From the sequence record MT446396.1: 64,000 nt of DNA. The stretch is one strand, 5' to 3'. The stretch comes from Escherichia virus TH22. The position numbers and the translations under genes are program-made. Of this stretch, positions 1 to 56,038 are shown one piece after another. A model generated the notes under the pieces. It searched no databases. It saw nothing but the letters and a program-made list of their open reading frames with translations, and had not been told where the DNA came from. The stretch's first letter is position 1, and each line of letters begins with the position of its first letter.

Positions 1-10
1 AATCTTAAAT

Positions 11-26
11 GGGGGCGAAAGCCCCC
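11..26 (+). other. GC-rich stem-loop GGGGGC-GAAA-GCCCCC (GNRA tetraloop) just upstream of the first ORF; no U-run
   Basis: Perfect 6-bp inverted repeat with GAAA loop read directly; followed by GAGGA Shine-Dalgarno and ATG at 41. Confidence 0.4.
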
Positions 27-40
27 TTGAGGAAAATACT

Positions 41-331
41 ATGTTTATGACTACTTACTTTGATACACGTAAAAATTTCTGTGAAGTTGTTTTCTCTAAA
101 AAAGGCCCTAATGTTCCTGCTGGGTGTGAACCAACACGTGATTCCATTAAGAACTATGTTGATGTAGTTTGCCCACTAGAATTCCGGACTGTTAATGGAC
201 GCGATACTCTGGCAATCACTAAGCTTAGTCGTGACATTAATATTGACCCAACCGTGGCGCGCGAAATTAATTCATCTGATATTAATGGCGGTAATGTTAA
301 ATCACACGGTTTCCAGATGAGGTTCCAATGA
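41..331 (+). CDS. hypothetical early protein (96 aa)
   Basis: ATG-initiated ORF with upstream GAGGA; stop overlaps the next start (ATGA); no recognisable motif. Confidence 0.4.
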   Translation: MFMTTYFDTRKNFCEVVFSKKGPNVPAGCEPTRDSIKNYVDVVCPLEFRTVNGRDTLAITKLSRDINIDPTVAREINSSDINGGNVKSHGFQMRFQ

Positions 332-522
332 AATTATTCTTATCACAAACTGTTCAGTTAAAAGGTGTGGGTATTCCTGGAATGATTTCAAAGGTCCTGC
401 CTACGTTTAAATTAGGCAATACCCAAATTAAAGAAGCATATGCAGTCTTGTGGGTTGATGGAACTGAAGACGTTCGCATGGGTGGTGAGTTGTCTGTAAT
501 CAAATGCTTAAAGCGAGGATAA
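328..522 (+). CDS. hypothetical early protein (64 aa)
   Basis: ORF coupled by ATGA overlap to the upstream ORF; same strand as the ligase operon. Confidence 0.35.
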   Translation: MKLFLSQTVQLKGVGIPGMISKVLPTFKLGNTQIKEAYAVLWVDGTEDVRMGGELSVIKCLKRG

Positions 523-523
523 T

Positions 524-736
524 ATGTTTAAGAAACTGATTCAGAAAATTTTGGGAACGGAAATGGTTGAAGTTACTTATCGCGTGACTGACGTAAGTCC
601 ATGGGCCCGAAATATTGAACCATATACTAAAACAATTAAAATGCTGAAATCTGACGGTGGATTATCTATTAAAGACCGTTTACCTGGTTATGGTCATTGG
701 GCTGATGTAGAGATTATCAGTGTCAAAAATGTCTGA
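524..736 (+). CDS. hypothetical early protein (70 aa)
   Basis: Tightly packed ORF in the early operon upstream of the ligase. Confidence 0.35.
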   Translation: MFKKLIQKILGTEMVEVTYRVTDVSPWARNIEPYTKTIKMLKSDGGLSIKDRLPGYGHWADVEIISVKNV

Positions 737-1187
737 GTTAGAAATCAGAAGCAATTTCCCATGGCCATCATGTGCATTAAGTAACTTTGCTAAATGGCCT
801 TTTGTTATGGAGGGTATCCAGTTTGGAGGTCTTGAAGGCTTCCTACAAGGGTGCAAGGTGAGAAATCATGAACAACAAAAACGTATATTTGGGATGTCCG
901 GATTGGCCGCCCAGCAAAGTGGAAGAGCTTATGCAAGAGCTGCGGACCGTGGGACGCTTTTCTGGCTTGGAATTCCCTTTTCAAGATACTCTGCAGCATG
1001 GAAAGAGCTGTATACAAATGCATATTTTGAAGCAGCGCTCCAGAACCAAGGATTCCGCAATGCGTTACAATCCACAAAAGGCAAAGTTTTAAAGCATTCG
1101 ATGGCGAGCCACCTTACTGTTCATGATACAATATTGACTGAACAAGAATTTATTGACATACTTAACCAATTGAGAGATGCATTATGA
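729..1187 (+). CDS. NADAR-domain (YbiA/DUF1768-like) protein, putative ADP-ribose N-glycosidase/hydrolase
   Basis: Motif LSNFAKWPFVMEGIQFGGLEGFLQGCKV resembles the YbiA signature FSNFAAWP...SEHYFQAQKF as recalled; internal ATG at 729 chosen over the GTG at 720 in the ORF track. Confidence 0.5.
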   Translation: MSELEIRSNFPWPSCALSNFAKWPFVMEGIQFGGLEGFLQGCKVRNHEQQKRIFGMSGLAAQQSGRAYARAADRGTLFWLGIPFSRYSAAWKELYTNAYFEAALQNQGFRNALQSTKGKVLKHSMASHLTVHDTILTEQEFIDILNQLRDAL

Positions 1188-12545: not shown

Positions 12546-12557
12546 TATTTATAAATA
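12546..12557. promoter_or_regulatory. palindromic divergent late promoters TATTTATAAATA (gene 51 on -, gene 26 on +)
   Basis: TATAAATA readable on both strands, overlapping by 4 nt, between divergent late genes. Confidence 0.6.
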
Positions 12558-49653: not shown

Positions 49654-51396
49654 TTAGCCAATGTCAATCCTCGAACCATCAATAGTATATTGACCAGATG
49701 CAATAGAACTCATTGAAGCCATAGTCTCGGACCAAGCACCTGCACAAGTCCAAGATACGGTACCATTTACAGTCCAGTTTAAATTACCATTAGTCGTGCG
49801 AGTTTCATTACCTTCTACTAAGGTAGTCGCATCACCCTTAACAGTAACATCAGCATTTCCTTCAACAATAACAGTAACGTTGCCTTTAACTCTGAGTGTT
49901 CCATTACCTTCTACAGTTTTCTCTTCGTTACCACGAATATGGATGGTTTCGTTTCCATCGGTCTGACGACGAACGTTAGCCATATTGTAATAGGTTTCAT
50001 CACCACCAACGTTGACTTTATTATTCCCACCAACATAAGTGCTTGAATCGCCCTGGGTCATATAATAGCCATCGGCTACCGTCTTCGAAGTCTTACGACC
50101 ATCTGGTGCAACTTCCTCATAGGAACCGGTCGGATGAATCAGTCGATAACGTTCTTGTCCTGGAGTGTTATCAAATTCCTGAATATGACCGCCTTCAGTT
50201 TGCATTGTCTGCACGTAAGGATATTCACCTTTGTAACTTGATTCTGGCTCTTTAAATAGAATCCTCGTATCTTCTGGAGTCCACGGGTCGGCCGGGTCGG
50301 AATTTGTAGGGGCCACAAAGGTTTGAATCATCCTGTATGAACGCCCTTTAAATGACCTTTCTTTAGGGGCCATAATACCATATGATTCCATGTTACCTGT
50401 GAGGATAATCATTGATACCCTTGATGCACGGCCTTTAGTTTGGTTAAACCATACAGAATCACGAGCGGCATCAAATGCTTTCTTATAATCTCCGGCTAAC
50501 ATTGCAGCGAGCATCGTTTTAAATTTAGCAAGTCCACCTAATCCCATTTGGAAAGCCATGTTTTCAAGAGCCATTTGTCTTGAACGGTTTTCTTTATTGT
50601 AAACCGGACCTACAACACTATGTCTACCTATATCATTTTGGACTTTTTTAAGGTCTTCTTGGAATAACTTAGAAGCCTCGTCCATTGATATTGCACCAGG
50701 GTTACCTTTAACTTCACGGCCTATTTGATTGGATAATATTTTGTTTATCTGATTCATATCTCTAATAGGTTGTGGTGTAATTAAGTGTCCTATACCTATA
50801 GTAGGATAACCTTCAGTGTCCCAATATACTTTCAGACGAAGACCTTCATCGCGGTGAAGCATGTTTTCTATTGTGAAATTAGGATTATCATCAGGCTTAA
50901 CTTGGCTTAAATCTAACCCGTCTGGATTAATACCTACATCAGTGTTTGCATCTTGTATTACGTTTGAAGTGTCATCATAACCGACCTCACCGCCTCGGTT
51001 AAGCGCAGCAGCATCATTGCCCACATAAAGCGGATATTGCCCTGTGGGGTCACTAAAACCTTCTGTTGTGTTTGCCTTCTGTCTTGATGCTGAGCCATAT
51101 GTACCAAGGACTAATCCATTGAGCTTCCACTTGTCCAAAAAGTGACCATATACTTGAGTACCCGGGACCATACCAGTCATGGCAGTTTGAATACCGGAAA
51201 CCGATGCAGATGATGTTGGCATCAATACAGACATCCAGGGCAGGTCTTCAGTTCTGATACCTTTTACAGGCCCTTGCGATTTCTCATATGGATGCATACC
51301 CCATACACGAACACGAACACGACCTTGTTGAAGTGGGTCCATTCGGTCTTCGACAACACCGACGAACCAACTTACACTATCTGACATATTAATCAT
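49654..51396 (-). CDS. 5: baseplate hub/central spike with lysozyme domain
   Basis: 580 aa (T4 gp5 575 aa); C-terminal beta-helix repeats (VEGN/VKGN) ending IDGSRIDIG. Confidence 0.9.
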   Translation of the reverse strand: MINMSDSVSWFVGVVEDRMDPLQQGRVRVRVWGMHPYEKSQGPVKGIRTEDLPWMSVLMPTSSASVSGIQTAMTGMVPGTQVYGHFLDKWKLNGLVLGTYGSASRQKANTTEGFSDPTGQYPLYVGNDAAALNRGGEVGYDDTSNVIQDANTDVGINPDGLDLSQVKPDDNPNFTIENMLHRDEGLRLKVYWDTEGYPTIGIGHLITPQPIRDMNQINKILSNQIGREVKGNPGAISMDEASKLFQEDLKKVQNDIGRHSVVGPVYNKENRSRQMALENMAFQMGLGGLAKFKTMLAAMLAGDYKKAFDAARDSVWFNQTKGRASRVSMIILTGNMESYGIMAPKERSFKGRSYRMIQTFVAPTNSDPADPWTPEDTRILFKEPESSYKGEYPYVQTMQTEGGHIQEFDNTPGQERYRLIHPTGSYEEVAPDGRKTSKTVADGYYMTQGDSSTYVGGNNKVNVGGDETYYNMANVRRQTDGNETIHIRGNEEKTVEGNGTLRVKGNVTVIVEGNADVTVKGDATTLVEGNETRTTNGNLNWTVNGTVSWTCAGAWSETMASMSSIASGQYTIDGSRIDIG

Positions 51397-51995
51397 AGCG
51401 CCTTCTCCATCTCGCGGATTAATGCCGAAATAAATGATTCGATATCATTAGGGTCGATTATCTTTATTTCTCGTTTATATTCATTTTTGCGAATAGCATC
51501 TTCGTAGATATCCACTGCAGCTAATGGGCCTTCATACTGTGGGTATAATTTGTTCTTATCACCTTTATCATACCATGTGTATGGATTATCAGGATAAGAA
51601 ACAAGATTCCAGAATTTTTCACCATCTTCATTTACATGATAAAGAACCTGATTACCACCTATATTCGAATAGCGTTGAATTGATGCCTGATATGATGATT
51701 CTTGTGAACATATCCAACCATAATACGGGTCATAGATATTATTAAGCATAAGGAGAACCCAATAGAGTTGAGTATTACCATAGAGCTGATATGCAAGTTC
51801 TTCAGGTCTCGGAGCTCCGGCGATGTAATATGTTTTCGGTGTATAATTAACCGCGACCTTATCAAAATATGCACGATAGTTTCTGAAGATGTCAGTCATT
51901 GGGATGCTTAAGACATCTTCTTTCGTTAATGATGCCGAGTTTTTTCTGATTGTTTTAGCATCATAATCAATTGGGTTAAAAAATGAAAAAAGCAT
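51393..51995 (-). CDS. 53: baseplate wedge subunit
   Basis: 200 aa (T4 gp53 196 aa); ATGA overlap with gene 5. Confidence 0.8.
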   Translation of the reverse strand: MLFSFFNPIDYDAKTIRKNSASLTKEDVLSIPMTDIFRNYRAYFDKVAVNYTPKTYYIAGAPRPEELAYQLYGNTQLYWVLLMLNNIYDPYYGWICSQESSYQASIQRYSNIGGNQVLYHVNEDGEKFWNLVSYPDNPYTWYDKGDKNKLYPQYEGPLAAVDIYEDAIRKNEYKREIKIIDPNDIESFISALIREMEKAL

Positions 51996-52035
51996 AAAGC
52001 CTCCATTTACAATATGGTTTAAGTATGATATACTC

Positions 52036-52047
52036 TATTTATAAATA
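52036..52047. promoter_or_regulatory. palindromic divergent late promoters TATTTATAAATA (gene 53 on -, HNH/gene 4 on +)
   Basis: Same 12-mer palindrome as at 12546. Confidence 0.6.
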
Positions 52048-52065
52048 CATATGAGGAAAATATAA

Positions 52066-52773
52066 ATGAACTATCTAAAACATTACAATAACTTAATCCA
52101 ACGAGCTAAAAATCGAGCACCCATTGATGGTTACAAAGAGAAACATCACATTATTCCAAGATGTATGGGCGGATTAGATACTGATGAAAATTTAGTCGAG
52201 CTTACCGCTCCTGAACATTTTGTCGCCCACCTGTTATTGGTTAAAATTTATCCAGATAATCACTCGTTAGCACATGCTGCGAAAATTCTAATGGGTTCCA
52301 ACAATTACAATAACAAACAATTTGAATGGGTGCGCATCCGCGCTGTTGAGACTTCCATTAAGTTTCACACTGGACGTAAACGTTCAAAACAAACATGTGA
52401 AAATATTTCAAAAGCTCTTAAAGGTAAGAAATATGGCCCGCGCTCTGAAGAGCATTGCAAAAAGTTGTCAGAAGCAGCAAAGGGTAAAAAGTTCTCTGAA
52501 GAACATTGTAAGAAATTATCAGAAAGAGTGTTTACAGATGATTGGCGAGCAAAAATATCCAAGGCAAATAAAGAAAGAGTTTTGGTAAATCATAGCGAGA
52601 AAATAAAGCAAGGTATTACTGATGATGTCAGAAAACGTTTATCAGAGCTTAATAAAAATGCTCCCCGTCACACCTGTGAACACTGTGGAAAAATAACAAA
52701 TCCAGGCAACTATAAACGTTGGCATGGTGAAAATTGTAAGGTACTTAAAAATGGCGTACTCCGGGAAGTTTAA
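52066..52773 (+). CDS. HNH homing endonuclease (Mob-like) inserted between genes 53 and 4
   Basis: 235 aa; HHIIPRCMGG...ENLVELTAPEH HNH core, C-terminal CEHCGK...NC zinc-binding motif; 3' end overlaps the gene 4 start by 23 nt. Confidence 0.8.
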   Translation: MNYLKHYNNLIQRAKNRAPIDGYKEKHHIIPRCMGGLDTDENLVELTAPEHFVAHLLLVKIYPDNHSLAHAAKILMGSNNYNNKQFEWVRIRAVETSIKFHTGRKRSKQTCENISKALKGKKYGPRSEEHCKKLSEAAKGKKFSEEHCKKLSERVFTDDWRAKISKANKERVLVNHSEKIKQGITDDVRKRLSELNKNAPRHTCEHCGKITNPGNYKRWHGENCKVLKNGVLREV

Positions 52774-53200
52774 ACCAACAAATCTAGAAAAATATAAAGG
52801 TGATTGGAAGAAAATACAGTACAGGTCGAGTTGGGAGGCATATATGTTCAAGTGGCTCGACACTCACCCCAATGTTGTTCAATGGGGTTCTGAGACTGTT
52901 GTTATTCCATATTTTAGCAATGCTGATGGCAAAAAGCGCCGTTACTATATGGATATATGGTGTAAATTTGATACCGGCCAGCAATTTTTTATTGAAATAA
53001 AACCATTCAAAGAAACACAGCCCCCAAAAATTCCTGTAAATAATACAGCAGCCAGTAAGAAACGTTATATAAACGAAATGTACACTTATTCTGTGAACAG
53101 GGATAAGTGGAAAGCTGCACAAGCTACCGCAGATAAAATGGGTATTACATTTCGCATTCTAACCGAAAACGGCCTGAAAAAATTAGGATGGAAAGGATGA
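52751..53200 (+). CDS. 4: head completion protein
   Basis: 149 aa from [18 protein letters not shown], matching T4 gp4 [18 protein letters not shown] as recalled. Confidence 0.85.
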
Positions 53201-54024
53201 GTATTTTTACATTTATCAATGAATCTGCAGATAAACCAGGTCCGAAACCCAGTAAATCAGAACAACAATGGGTTGAGATAGGGGTTGAATTTTATACAGC
53301 AAAAGAAAAAGGAATGACCTCGAAGAAGTTTGCTGAAGAGAAAGGAATCAACTATTCGACCTTTACCAAAAGCATGTCGAGGTATCATTCAAGAATTCAG
53401 ACTGCTTATAAAGTATCCAAGCTCAAAAAGAAACCTGCTGGTAAACTTACGAAGGCTGAACGCCAGCTGATAATGGTGAATAGCTTTAGGAAGAGCATAA
53501 GAGATAAGATTGCTAACGAAGGCGCTGCAAGCAACACCAAATCTGCCAGATGGTTCGCAGAGACAATTAAGAAATCAGTTCGCGGCCACGTAACGGCTAA
53601 ACCTCAACCAGGTAAACTTTATGCTTATATCTATGATGCAAAGCATAAGGATACTCTTCCATACTGGGACAAATATCCGTTAATCATTTATCTTGGTCTA
53701 GGTAAGCATAATTTGATGTACGGTTTGAACTTGCACTATATTCCACCGAAGGCACGTCAAGAGTTCCTTGAGGAACTTCTTAAGCAATATGCTAATACTC
53801 CTACGATTACAAACAAGACTCATCTGAAGATTGATTGGTCAAAGGTGAAGGGATTTAAAGGGGCTGACCAGATGATTAAAGCATATATACCCGGCAATAT
53901 AAAAGGTACTATCACTGAAATCAAGCCCAGCGACTGGGCAAATGTGGTATTACTCCCCCTTCAGCAGTTTTTTTCAAAAGGCAAAAGATATTCTTCCCAG
54001 AAAGTATGGAGAAATTCACTTTGA
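53197..54024 (+). CDS. 2: DNA end protector protein
   Basis: 275 aa from [16 protein letters not shown] (T4 gp2 about 274 aa); ATGA overlap with gene 4. Confidence 0.8.
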
Positions 54025-54680
54025 ATTATCAGTTTATATATTCATCGTTAATTGAAAGGGCCTGTAACAGGGTCCTGATTTCATATAAAGAATCTCATCA
54101 CATCATTCCGAAATGTATGGGTGGTTCAAATGACCCAGATAATCTGGTCGATTTGACTCCTGAGGAACATTATGTAGCCCATCAACTATTGGTTAAAATA
54201 TATCCTACAAATCCAGGTTTAAGTTTTGCTGCTACATCCATGTGCCAGTCAAGCAAGTATTTGAAACGCAATAATAAATTATTTGGTTGGTTAAGACGTA
54301 GACACGCTGACAATATTTCTAAAAGTCAAACCGGTAAAGTTTACTTTAATAATGGTGTCAAATCGATAAAACTATTTCCATGGGAAAATATTCCGGATGG
54401 GTTTGTCAAAGGAAGACATTACAGTCCAACCAAGGGTACAAAACATTCTCGCAATAATGGTCATTTTAAAAATAAAGAGATTCAGGATGAATTGAGAAAG
54501 CGCCGGTGGGAAAAAGATAGGCAAGAAATGTGTAAAAACTTCGGAGTTGATACCGTCGAGCAAGCTCGAGAGTTGGTCTTAGCATATAAAAAGGAATTGC
54601 ATCCTCGATACTGGGTAAAGCCAATGTTGGAACGTTATCCGTTTATGACTAAGCTAAGACTTAACACATTAATAAAATAA
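54006..54680 (+). CDS. HNH homing endonuclease (Mob-like), second copy, inserted between genes 2 and 3
   Basis: 224 aa; [10 protein letters not shown]...[11 protein letters not shown], paralogous to ORF 52066; 5' end overlaps the gene 2 stop by 19 nt. Confidence 0.8.
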
Positions 54681-54715
54681 TCTATTATCGGTCAGTGTTA
54701 TTGGTAAGGACAAAA

Positions 54716-54754
54716 GGTCTAGAACCATTATAACACTGATTGTTTTAAAGCAAA
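54716..54754 (-). promoter_or_regulatory. orphan MotA-box middle-promoter-like element on the minus strand (TGCTTTA, 13 nt, TATAAT, GGTTCTAGACC), pointing antisense into the HNH gene
   Basis: Reverse complement of 54716-54754 reads tttGCTTTAaaacaatcagtgtTATAATGGTTCTAGACC. Confidence 0.4.
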
Positions 54755-54765
54755 CAAGGTGCATT

Positions 54766-55365
54766 ATGTCAGGTTTATATAATCAAACTAACACGACTAA
54801 CTTTATATTAGAGGTAAGCGATTCAAACCTCACACAGACCTTTAAACTCAACGTTCAAGACGTTACCCTCCCAGGGGTTCACATCCCTGTGACAGATGTT
54901 CCTGGGGGAACACAAGGTATAAATCGCTCCAGTCTTCCTGGTAGTACAATAGAATTCGACCCACTGATTGTTAACTTTCTGTGTGACAAAGACCTAAGAG
55001 CATGGCTTGACATTTATAAATGGATGCTCTCGCTCAACAACTACATCACACACGAATCAAAAGCATGGCATCCGAAGGGTCGTCCCGAAGCGGTCACGCT
55101 TCATATCTTAGATAACAACAAGGACAAAATTGTCATGTCAATCCATTACTATGGAGCATGGCCGTCCGACCTGTCAGAGATTCAGTATTCATATAAAGAA
55201 GATTCTGACCCGGCTATCAATGCAACAGCAACTTTTAACTTTAAGTCTTTTGCTGTAGAAATTGATGGTATAATAATAGAAGGTAGACCACAGATTGATA
55301 GTAATGCAGCAATGCAACAGGAAATCAGGTCTAAGTCAATGCATCCATCTATGAGAAACGTATGA
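54766..55365 (+). CDS. 3: tail completion / sheath terminator protein
   Basis: 199 aa; position between genes 2 and 1 as in T4 (T4 gp3 about 176 aa). Confidence 0.7.
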   Translation: MSGLYNQTNTTNFILEVSDSNLTQTFKLNVQDVTLPGVHIPVTDVPGGTQGINRSSLPGSTIEFDPLIVNFLCDKDLRAWLDIYKWMLSLNNYITHESKAWHPKGRPEAVTLHILDNNKDKIVMSIHYYGAWPSDLSEIQYSYKEDSDPAINATATFNFKSFAVEIDGIIIEGRPQIDSNAAMQQEIRSKSMHPSMRNV

Positions 55366-56038
55366 AATTAATTGCGATTGTGGGTAAAAAACGCAGTGGT
55401 AAAGATACGACTGCTGATTATGTTATTAGTCAAAACGGAACAAAGTGGCAGCTTGCAGGTCCGATTAAAGAAGCGCTTTATAAAGCGTGGATTCGTCAAG
55501 ACCTGCCACACAATTTGACCCTGGAAAATTTTGATGGACAAGGTTATGACCGTGAAAAAACCTTGATAATGAACAACACCGAAGCTTATATTCTTCTGGT
55601 TGATGCTCTTGAATGGTTGAAACAACAATACAATCTTGACCTTCCGAATCCAGATATGGTTCGTAAAATCATTGAATTTCACACACTAAATAATGTTGAG
55701 CCCTGGACAGTTAGACGTTTCATGCAGACCCTTGGAACTGACATCGTTTGTACAGAGTTCGACAGCATGTTTTGGATTAAAACTTTTGCGTGCGATTATC
55801 TTGACAACCTCTATTCTGGATATAAATATTACGTTGTCCCAGATGTTCGTCAAAAGAACGAACTTGATTCGCTTCGGGCGATGGGTGCTACAATAATCTT
55901 TGTAGAGCGCGATGAAGCAAATCATTCTACTGATACACACATTACGGAAGCTGGACTTCCACCACTAGCTAGTGACATTGTTATTAAAAACGATGGCACA
56001 CTCGAAGAACTTTTTGATAAAATTAATAAGGTAATATA

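Follow-up and report, generated by a model that had tools for sequence, protein, structure and literature searches.

Two Mob-type HNH homing endonuclease genes at the boundaries of genes 4 and 2 of a T4-type Gaprivervirus phage

We examined 64,000 nucleotides of Escherichia virus TH22 (MT446396.1; this whole stretch is referred to as the window) and found two genes, HNH1 and HNH2, which on the evidence of their sequences are intact and belong to the T4 Mob (HNH) family of free-standing homing endonucleases. It is very likely that both encode functional homing endonucleases that were acquired independently, HNH1 acting on the 5' part of gene 4 and HNH2 on the 3' end of gene 2. The window comes from a VR7/SP18-like T4-type phage of the genus Gaprivervirus, and the phages UPEC07 and TH55 are 99.9% identical to it. 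GenBank already labels both of them as homing endonucleases (in the near-identical phage UPEC07), and neither reveals a new kind of element: this is a clear but ordinary case. The open reading frames given in a preliminary description of this DNA, 52066-52773 (235 aa) and 54006-54680 (224 aa), were both recovered; the features discussed here are listed in Table 1.

Table 1. Features in and around the two endonuclease loci (window coordinates)
Feature	Coordinates	Strand	Basis
Gene 53, baseplate wedge (left neighbour)	51393..51995	-	Pfam Phage_gp53, 1.6e-73
Module 1, inserted/divergent relative to ECML-359	52010..53173	+	Mismatch/gap maps, variable-site tables, segment identities
Palindrome TATTTATAAATA, putative bidirectional late promoter	52036..52047	.	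T4-type late promoter box TATAAATA on both strands
GAGG Shine-Dalgarno of HNH1, 9 nt before ATG 52066	52053..52056	+	Sequence
HNH1, Mob-type free-standing HNH homing endonuclease, 235 aa	52066..52773	+	ORF; PHROG 655; MobE similarity
HNH1 catalytic core, residues 22-58	52129..52239	+	Alignment; AlphaFold model
HNH1 NUMOD3-type helical repeats (SxEHxxKLS units)	52372..52665	+	Pfam NUMOD3, three stretches
HNH1 C-terminal CxxC...H...C motif, residues 204-224, putative zinc knuckle	52675..52737	+	
TAAGGT Shine-Dalgarno of gene 4, in last HNH1 codons (Cys-Lys)	52737..52742	+	Sequence
Gene 4, head completion	52751..53200	+	Pfam TnsA-like N-terminal domain, 1.5e-20
Gene 2, DNA end protector	53197..54024	+	UPEC07 annotation, alignment, C-terminal translations
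HNH2-linked gene 2 patch	53943..53991	+	16 substitutions in 49 nt relative to ECML-359
Precise 659-bp HNH2 insertion	54018..54676	+	Alignment with SP18 and phage 212; gap run
HNH2, Mob-type free-standing HNH homing endonuclease	54021..54680	+	ORF; PHROG 655; MobE similarity; start-codon comparison
Hairpin followed by UUGUUUU, between gene 2/HNH2 and gene 3	54689..54742	+	
Gene 3, tail completion (right neighbour)	54766..55365	+	99% identity to ECML-359

Both proteins match PHROG 655 ('homing endonuclease'; 6.6e-61 for HNH1 and 6.9e-57 for HNH2), and in BLASTP comparisons both are similar to the N-terminus of T4 MobE (70% identity over 63 aa, 6e-31, for HNH1; 53% over 88 aa, 2e-28, for HNH2). 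The HNH core pattern is present in 63 out of 64 homologues, and E25, H27, H28, P31, G36, N42, H51 and H55 are invariant in the 64 aligned homologues (including both ORFs); the catalytic residues, on whose conservation the preliminary description had made its reading depend, are thus all kept. The core of HNH1, HHIIPRCMGGLDTDENLVELTAPEH, carries the invariant E25, H27, H28, N42, H51 and H55 in a predicted strand, strand, helix arrangement, and the AlphaFold model of the protein (pLDDT 93) places the core strands at residues 25-28 and 43-46 and the helix at 48-61. The core of HNH2 comprises 25 protein letters. A single core had been quoted for both genes; both do contain one, but the literal LTPEEH occurs in HNH2 only. 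The gathering cut-off of the Pfam HNH family (PF01844; 21.4 bits) was reached by neither protein: HNH2 scored 20.4 bits and HNH1 gave no match to it, its sole Pfam match being NUMOD3 (21.3 bits). The Mob-type HNH core is a divergent branch, and this shortfall touches the Pfam label, not membership in the Mob family. A sequence search of the PDB returned non-significant HNH motif matches only (McrA, pyocin AP41 and a group II intron maturase; E 0.09-0.4), and a search of NCBIfam returned nothing useful.

Outside the catalytic domain the two proteins are different. In the AlphaFold model of HNH1, helices span residues 108-198, and the NUMOD3-type repeats presumably form a DNA-binding arm. The C-terminal Cys/His motif noted earlier for this protein is indeed there (CEHCGKITNPGNYKRWHGENC); the CxxC...H...C pattern is found in 44 of the 64 homologues, and the match of the HNH1 C-terminus to Zn_ribbon is weak (E 0.017). 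No Pfam match was found for the C-terminal 135 aa of HNH2, a region that we presume to be DNA-binding as well. The dN/dS ratio is 0.03 for HNH1 (compared with phage 212) and 0.10-0.16 for HNH2, low values which indicate that the proteins are functional and under purifying selection.

The two genes had been called paralogous, which holds for them as members of one family. In the N-terminal 137 aa HNH1 and HNH2 are 45% identical (E 7e-31), their C-termini are unrelated, and their overall identity is 37%, whereas the identity of each to its same-site orthologues from other genera is 56-69%. A recent local duplication was rejected on the strength of this difference, and since each gene is nearer to its same-site orthologues than to the other gene, the sequences indicate two independent acquisitions. 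Both genes are free-standing, lie at gene boundaries and leave genes 4 and 2 uninterrupted; homing into conserved structural genes, as proposed before, is therefore an apt description of the targets but not of the insertions, which are not inside genes. We also considered an intron-encoded HNH endonuclease (I-HmuI or I-TevIII type), and rejected it, as genes 4 and 2 are uninterrupted and no Rfam family, group I introns included, matches between 51300 and 55500.

The distribution of the genes is patchy. Among 27 distinct Gaprivervirus relatives (at least 90% identity), HNH1 is found in three and HNH2 in six: two genomes have both genes, one has HNH1 alone, four have HNH2 without HNH1 (with another kind of insert between genes 4 and 2 in two of the four) and 20 have neither. 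Clean empty sites are seen in many of these relatives, so the ORFs are not universal at these positions; it was universal presence that the preliminary description had named as speaking against mobility. The positions themselves are constant: HNH1-type genes are always just 5' of gene 4 (even in Aeromonas phage 25, which has gene 5.1 on the upstream side), HNH2-type genes are always just 3' of gene 2, and orthologues of both occupy the same two sites in other genera. Seg-like genes are present at the neighbouring 5/53 and 4/2 sites in the relatives P479, P8 and PSD2001, which makes the 5-53-4-2-3 block a four-site endonuclease hotspot in Gaprivervirus.

Comparison with the empty relative ECML-359, which served as the reference for our mosaic maps and is ~99% identical to the window outside two patches, shows that each divergent tract adjoins one endonuclease gene. 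The first tract (Module 1 in Table 1) contains a remodelled 53/4 intergenic region, HNH1 and nucleotides 1-423 of gene 4; the break in homology to empty genomes that is due to HNH1 extends over 52010-52750, and gene 53 to its left is untouched by the insertion (99.7% identity to ECML-359). Gene 4 of the window is 74-83% identical to gene 4 of other Gaprivervirus phages and 98.7% identical to that of phage 212. The whole of Module 1 is common to the window and phage 212 at ~97-99% identity, while gene 53 is merely 88% identical between them. Among database phages no closer match to this gene 4 allele was found (best 79%), and it is a foreign allele, ~21% divergent at the DNA level, possibly from an unsampled donor.

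Module 1 also carries expression signals. The palindrome upstream of HNH1 contains the only two TATAAATA matches between 51300 and 55500, one per strand: the box on the + strand (52040-52047) faces HNH1, gene 4, gene 2 and HNH2, and that on the - strand (52043-52036) faces gene 53. By analogy to the T4 late promoter consensus these boxes probably act as late promoters, and HNH1 would be expressed late from the box at 52040-52047. A sigma-70-like TTTACA-17-TATACT is also present at 52006-52034. HNH1 does lie between the divergent late promoter and gene 4, as described before, but the promoter is within the segment that differs from empty genomes, so the event was more than an insertion of HNH1 between gene 4 and a promoter that stayed as it was. 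Empty genomes have GGAGG as the Shine-Dalgarno sequence of gene 4, and TAAGGT takes its place in the window; a TGY-AAG-G arrangement is likewise found in phages phiR1-RT and KpV477. The start of gene 4 at ATG 52751 (MAYSGKF) is the start in all relatives (a longer ORF from 52724 is an overlap artefact), and with this start the 23-nt overlap reported between the two genes is right: the HNH1 stop (TAA, 52771-52773) falls in codons 7-8 of gene 4. Fold prediction upstream of HNH1 gave no hairpin that would sequester the ribosome-binding site, of the type known for I-TevI and Aeh1 mobE.

The target gene of HNH1 is presumably gene 4. A cleavage site somewhere in gene 4 is to be expected, and if a position had to be named, nucleotides ~85-105 would be our weak guess, as the target within gene 4 is not localizable because the whole gene is replaced or divergent. 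Aeromonas phages 25 and 44RR were tried as a near-isogenic pair for the HNH1 site and set aside: they are ~70% identical, so the tract is unreadable.

The second tract (53943-54676) is smaller and cleaner, consisting of the 49-nt gene 2 patch and the 659-bp insertion. The insertion (with a 1-nt positional ambiguity) lies between the last sense codon of gene 2 and its original TAA stop; the insert extends gene 2 by one Leu codon followed by a new TGA stop, and the former gene 2 stop now serves as the stop of HNH2 (TAA, 54678-54680). The hairpin downstream (RNA fold -23.9 kcal/mol, z -3.9; conserved in five aligned sequences) is not part of the insert because empty genomes have it too. This precise insert and the homology break of Module 1, both seen against insertion-free relatives, support the mobility first proposed for these genes.

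The overlap of HNH2 with gene 2 had been put at 19 nt, which is correct for ATG 54006 (224 aa), but TTG 54021 (219 aa) is most likely the start, judging from the aligned sequences: in RB32 and X20 the homologous MNY codon is the start of the HNH2 orthologue and forms an ATGA with the gene 2 stop, the upstream ATG is absent from VR7, and a GGAG (54008-54011) is found 9 nt upstream of the TTG. The overlap is therefore probably 4 nt (TTGA), and HNH2 may be translationally coupled to gene 2 through it.

The gene 2 patch points to where HNH2 may act. Compared with ECML-359, gene 2 is ~99% identical over nucleotides 10-755, 73% identical over nucleotides 756-815 and 100% identical over the last 16 nucleotides; the substitutions in the patch are mostly synonymous and lie 27-75 nt upstream of the insertion. 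The same localized gene 2 patch is seen beside the HNH2 orthologue when RB32 (occupied) is compared with T4 (empty). The linkage is imperfect, however: RZ has the HNH2-type patch but no HNH2, and VR7 has HNH2 (an 87% variant) on a patch type that is also found in the empty SP18. Gene 2 is presumably the target gene, and we infer that its nucleotides ~756-805 (53943-53991 of the window) are a candidate recognition or nicking region whose changes would make the host allele immune; the cut in empty gene 2 alleles would be expected within or next to GTTGTTATGCTTCCGTTGCAACAATTTATGTCGAAAGG.

Taken together, the mosaic flanks and the presence of the HNH1/gene 4 module on two backbones indicate recent lateral spread, and with the exceptions of RZ and VR7/SP18 the flanks look co-converted with the endonuclease genes. 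By analogy to T4 MobE, each enzyme would act late in a mixed infection, nicking or cutting the cognate gene of a co-infecting relative that has no endonuclease gene there. The break would be resected and repaired by recombination with the endonuclease-carrying genome as template, so that the endonuclease gene would be copied together with adjacent sequence (co-conversion), and differences in the target sequence would protect the host genome. Both elements are also tied into signals of the host genes: the HNH1 segment brings the putative bidirectional late promoter and the ribosome-binding site of gene 4, and HNH2 gives gene 2 its stop codon and ends on the old one, all of which should make a simple deletion costly.

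Could the patchy distribution simply reflect vertical inheritance and repeated loss, the genes being inactive relics or housekeeping HNH nucleases for packaging or head completion? A functional link to the neighbours is conceivable, as gp4 has a TnsA-like nuclease fold and gp2 binds DNA ends, and the activity of HNH1 and HNH2 is predicted from sequence; that of T4 MobA to MobD is listed as not determined. But a gene 4 allele that is ~21% divergent, tightly linked to HNH1 and found on two backbones is not explicable by loss alone; nor is the localized patch in gene 2. A loss-only history was rejected on account of the foreign gene 4 allele and the module common to the window and phage 212. The dN/dS values and the full-length ORFs speak against decay, presence in only three and six of the 27 close relatives speaks against a housekeeping role, and we regard this explanation as highly improbable.

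A second explanation grants that the genes arrived by homing and holds that they are now kept as expression parts of genes 53, 4 and 2 (an addiction-like state) or as weapons against competitors, homing itself being weak or lost. The sole late promoter boxes of genes 53 and 4 are in the HNH1 segment, HNH1 codons contain the ribosome-binding site of gene 4 and HNH2 provides the gene 2 stop codon; retention of T4 endonuclease genes is favoured by embedded host signals (PMC2988022), and strong purifying selection attests to a protein function, whichever function that is. However, genes 53, 4 and 2 are expressed in most relatives without either endonuclease gene, the catalytic residues are all in place, and the lateral spread of the mosaic flanks and of the HNH1/gene 4 module is recent; we consider it improbable that this has replaced homing. 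A related and more speculative reading of HNH1 builds on the swap of the whole of gene 4, the segment's own bidirectional late promoter, the embedded ribosome-binding site and gene 4 indels in two other genera: HNH1 would be an obligate expression cassette of gene 4 (an addiction-like lock-in), and gene 4, an essential structural gene, would mutate repeatedly at a nicking site near nt ~95. This is unlikely in our opinion, if somewhat less so than the preceding explanations. Active homing by both enzymes remains the reading that we prefer. The two loci then provide a well-resolved natural example of free-standing homing endonucleases that set the limits of recombination and carry essential structural genes from one T4-type phage to another. 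They also lead to concrete predictions of the targets (nt ~756-805 of gene 2 for HNH2 and the 5' region of gene 4 for HNH1), and the four-site hotspot bears on phage engineering and on how mosaicism in therapeutic coliphages is interpreted.

The closest characterized system is T4 MobE, encoded by a free-standing gene between nrdA and nrdB; it nicks nrdB and drives homing, its target is in the neighbouring gene, distant from the insertion and marked by polymorphisms in carriers, and the flanks are co-converted (PMC2790892). HNH1 and HNH2 share with it the N-terminal HNH domain and the free-standing position at a gene boundary. Like mobE, HNH2 is without its own promoter; HNH1, unlike mobE, has a late promoter box immediately upstream. 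The C-termini are unlike that of MobE (HNH1 has NUMOD3 repeats and a Cys/His motif there, HNH2 a region of 130 aa that is uncharacterized), and so are the presumed targets, genes 4 and 2 instead of nrdB. Activity is demonstrated for just one of the five T4 Mob proteins and is listed as not determined for MobA to MobD (Table 1 of PMC2988022). GenBank notes label the genes at the gene 2/3 junction of VR7, VR25 and RB32 as 'similar to MobB'. HNH2 belongs with this group (RB32 ORF146c, VR7 ORF161c): its identity is 87-97% to the proteins of VR7 and VR25 and ~60% to RB32 ORF146c, and all of these genes are at the same site after gene 2; the locus of T4 mobB itself is different (alpha-gt/alpha-gt.2; Table 1 of PMC2988022).

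For HNH1 the nearest counterparts in other genera are the endonucleases of Yersinia phages phiR1-RT and TG1, Aeromonas phage 25 and Klebsiella phages KpV477 and KP182 (56-61% identity over the full length), which have NUMOD3 repeats and the Cys/His motif as in HNH1 and whose genes directly precede gene 4. The endonuclease genes of phiR1-RT and KpV477 also run into the start of gene 4 and contain its ribosome-binding site in their 3' ends, with an overlap of 11 nt as compared with 23 nt for HNH1 (none in phage 25). In these two phages, unlike in the window, gene 4 has 1-nt indels near nt 51 and nt 95, which scramble or split its 5' end. Enzymes of the I-HmuI type and the Seg (GIY-YIG) endonucleases are likewise modular, with a nuclease domain and an extended DNA-binding arm with NUMOD motifs, and their lifestyle of homing with co-conversion is like that proposed for HNH1 and HNH2; unlike I-HmuI there is no intron here, and unlike Seg proteins the catalytic domain is HNH, not GIY-YIG.

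Both open reading frames (ORFs) of the preliminary description, HNH1 (adjoining gene 4, head completion) and HNH2 (adjoining gene 2, DNA end protector), are found where it placed them, and the analysis supports its homing-endonuclease interpretation: both are intact, free-standing HNH genes of the Mob type, and both encode full-length proteins. They share 45% identity across the N-terminal 137 residues (E-value 7e-31), with nothing beyond. PHROG 655 ('homing endonuclease') matches both (1e-57 to 1e-61); the sole Pfam match for HNH1 is NUMOD3, and HNH2 matches HNH at 20.4 bits, below the cut-off of 21.4. Their N-termini resemble T4 MobE (HNH1: 70% identity, 6e-31; HNH2: 53%, 2e-28), the only Mob protein for which nicking and homing have been demonstrated (PMC2790892). 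The HNH core noticed in both is conserved: across 64 aligned homologues, the two ORFs among them, E25, H27, H28, P31, G36, N42, H51 and H55 never vary. In the AlphaFold model (pLDDT 93) these residues sit on a strand-strand-helix unit; a run of NUMOD3-type helices comes next, then a small hairpin-helix at the C-terminus with CxxC...H...C. Fold searches with the whole model were uninformative. Of the 64 homologues, 44 have this Cys/His motif, which was described for the first ORF; HNH2 lacks it. dN/dS is 0.03 for HNH1 (window versus phage 212) and 0.10-0.16 for HNH2 (versus VR25, P479, fPSFA and VR7), so both genes are under purifying selection. Existing annotations already call the UPEC07, VR7, VR25 and RB32 versions homing endonucleases.

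Escherichia phages UPEC07 and TH55 are 99.9% identical to the window over 51300-55400, and ∼30 further Gaprivervirus records (VR7/SP18-like T4-type phages) are 90-98% identical. Genes 5 and 53 are on the minus strand, followed by HNH1, 4, 2, HNH2, 3 and 1 on the plus strand. Across the close matches, which comprise 27 distinct phages, the two genes are not universally present: HNH1 is found in three (TH55, UPEC07 and phage 212), HNH2 in six (TH55, UPEC07, VR25, VR7, P479 and fPSFA), and both are absent from 20 (e.g. SP18, VR20, VR26 and ECML-359). Two more sites in the same 3-kb block (5/53 and 4/2) are sporadically occupied in relatives, and the 5-53-4-2-3 block is therefore a four-site endonuclease hotspot. 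The 242-aa ORF at 4/2 has a weak treble-clef zinc-finger match. In phages with a 4/2 insert, gene 4 is a third, distinct allele.

HNH1-type genes (56-61% identical) directly precede gene 4 in Tegunavirus (phiR1-RT), Tulanevirus (Aeromonas phage 25, although its upstream neighbour is 5.1, not 53) and Jiaodavirus (KpV477), and HNH2-type genes (60-69% identical) directly follow gene 2 in Tequatrovirus (RB32), Winklervirus (X20) and others. Both window genes are thus nearer to their site-matched orthologues than to one another, so the two are 'paralogous', as first described, in belonging to a common family, but not by local duplication. Beside the HNH1 orthologue, gene 4 of phiR1-RT has one extra nucleotide near nt 95, leaving its first ∼31 codons out of frame (it is annotated as a truncated 117-aa protein), and that of KpV477 lacks one nucleotide near nt 51 and gains one near nt 95, scrambling 13 codons. 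The window counterpart (gene 4 nt ∼85-105) lies inside an allele divergent throughout. These indels could mark a nicking site of the HNH1 lineage, or be sequencing errors.

Comparison with empty relatives (those lacking the gene at the site) gave the insertion boundaries. Empty gene 2 ends read ...GTATGGAGAAATTCA followed directly by TAATCTATTATCGG, and HNH2 carriers have exactly 659 additional bases at this junction (1-nt ambiguity), after the final sense codon of gene 2 and ahead of its TAA. Gene 2 gains one Leu codon and a new TGA stop from the cassette, and the HNH2 frame terminates at the former gene 2 TAA (54678-54680). The ORF from ATG 54006, with its overlap of gene 2, does exist, but this ATG is within pre-existing gene 2 sequence (Val-Trp codons), is found in empty genomes too and is absent from VR7. 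RB32 and X20 orthologues start with ATG at a homologous Met-Asn-Tyr, with an ATGA overlap with the gene 2 stop; in the window this codon is TTG 54021, preceded by GGAG at a distance of 9 nt. We therefore favour a 219-aa HNH2 whose start overlaps the gene 2 stop as TTGA, an arrangement suggestive of translational coupling between the two genes. Before gene 3 (tail completion) lies a strong conserved hairpin (-23.9 kcal/mol, z -3.9, then UUGUUUU), which is also present in aligned empty genomes and whose ACCATTATA core can be recognized in RB32 and X20; it has no Rfam match and may terminate transcription or stabilize RNA.

The 53/4 spacer of empty genomes has 48 nt, with TATAAATA and GGAGG for gene 4. 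Window homology is lost at 52010 and not regained until the ATG of gene 4. Within the remodelled part, the palindrome TATTTATAAATA gives one perfect late-promoter box per strand; 51300-55500 has no other such boxes. A second palindromic TATAAATA pair, with one box on each strand, lies elsewhere in the window, so the back-to-back late promoter design is not unique to this spacer. A sigma-70/T4-early-like match (TTTACA-17-TATACT, upstream TG, 10/12) spans the left junction; it may be chance, because the regional match count is not above shuffle expectation. HNH1 has GAGG 9 nt ahead of its ATG, with no inhibitory hairpin predicted before it. Its stop codon is within gene 4 codons 7-8, and the HNH1 codons for the last Cys-Lys in the zinc motif double as the gene 4 ribosome-binding site; in phiR1-RT (Yersinia) and KpV477 (Klebsiella) this site is likewise inside HNH1-type codons.

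Features of the two insertions, with identities to ECML-359, and occupied sites in relatives
Feature	Position	Details
Gene 53 (baseplate wedge)		99.7% identity
Sigma-70/T4-early-like match	52006-52034
HNH1 site, remodelled	52010-52063
Late-promoter palindrome	52036-52047
Second palindromic pair	12546-12557
HNH1 core extra DNA	52064-52750
HNH1 ORF (+)	52066-52773
Gene 4 ribosome-binding site	52737-52742	TAAGGT
Gene 4	52751-53200	74-83% identity throughout; dS saturated at 1.9
Gene 2 nt 10-755		∼99% identity
Gene 2 nt 756-815		73% identity; 16 changes in window 53943-53991
Gene 2 last 16 nt		100% identity
HNH2 insertion	54018-54676
HNH2 ORF (+)	54006/54021-54680
Hairpin	54689-54742
Gene 3		99% identity
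5/53 and 4/2 inserts, relatives	P479 (L005) 594-1229 and 2332-2979; RZ (L008) 1697-2425; also L007, L009, L010, L014	5/53: GIY-YIG + NUMOD3 gene; 4/2: second GIY-YIG gene or different 242-aa ORF
Gene 4 indels, relatives	phiR1-RT (L016) ∼2186-2300; KpV477 (L018) ∼2185-2300

There are only two tracts divergent from ECML-359, each abutting one endonuclease gene. HNH1 and gene 4 are 98.7% identical between the window and phage 212 while gene 53 differs by 12%, so this module has moved between backbones; its donor is unsampled, as the closest gene 4 in the collection is only 79% identical. The two phages have 33 differences, mostly synonymous, in 52101-52599 (the 5' two-thirds of HNH1), and only two in the ∼490 nt of 52600-53091 (its 3' third and most of gene 4), which suggests a more recent exchange covering the HNH1 3' end and gene 4. 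Gene 4 itself matches the Pfam TnsA-like endonuclease N-terminal domain (1.5e-20), and its annotation in one relative, EAWsc9, reads 'head completion nuclease'.

Four HNH2 carriers (the window, VR25, P479 and fPSFA) have the gene 2 patch in common. In an independent pair, RB32 (occupied) and T4 (empty), genes 4, 2 and 3 are 98-100% identical save a patch located at this position of gene 2. Two phages depart from the pairing of patch and gene: RZ has the patch but lacks HNH2, and VR7 (with an HNH2 variant, 87%) bears the patch type of empty SP18. RZ and SP18 may be resistant empty alleles, arising via partial conversion or precise gene loss.

Taken together, the comparisons support HNH1 and HNH2 as independently acquired Mob-type homing endonuclease genes, each with a co-converted flank. 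By analogy with MobE and other T4 work (PMC2988022, PMC2790892), the endonuclease would nick or cut the empty allele, and recombinational repair would co-convert flanking sequence. This analysis contributes the limits of both insertions and of the conversion tracts, a candidate target for HNH2, a corrected start codon and the way in which the elements interlock with host expression signals. The case illustrates a known phenomenon at textbook quality and does not represent a new kind of element. The gene 2 patch resembles the nick site of MobE in its neighbouring gene, which is polymorphic in carriers (PMC2790892), and gene 2 nt ∼756-805 is by this likeness the best candidate target of HNH2.
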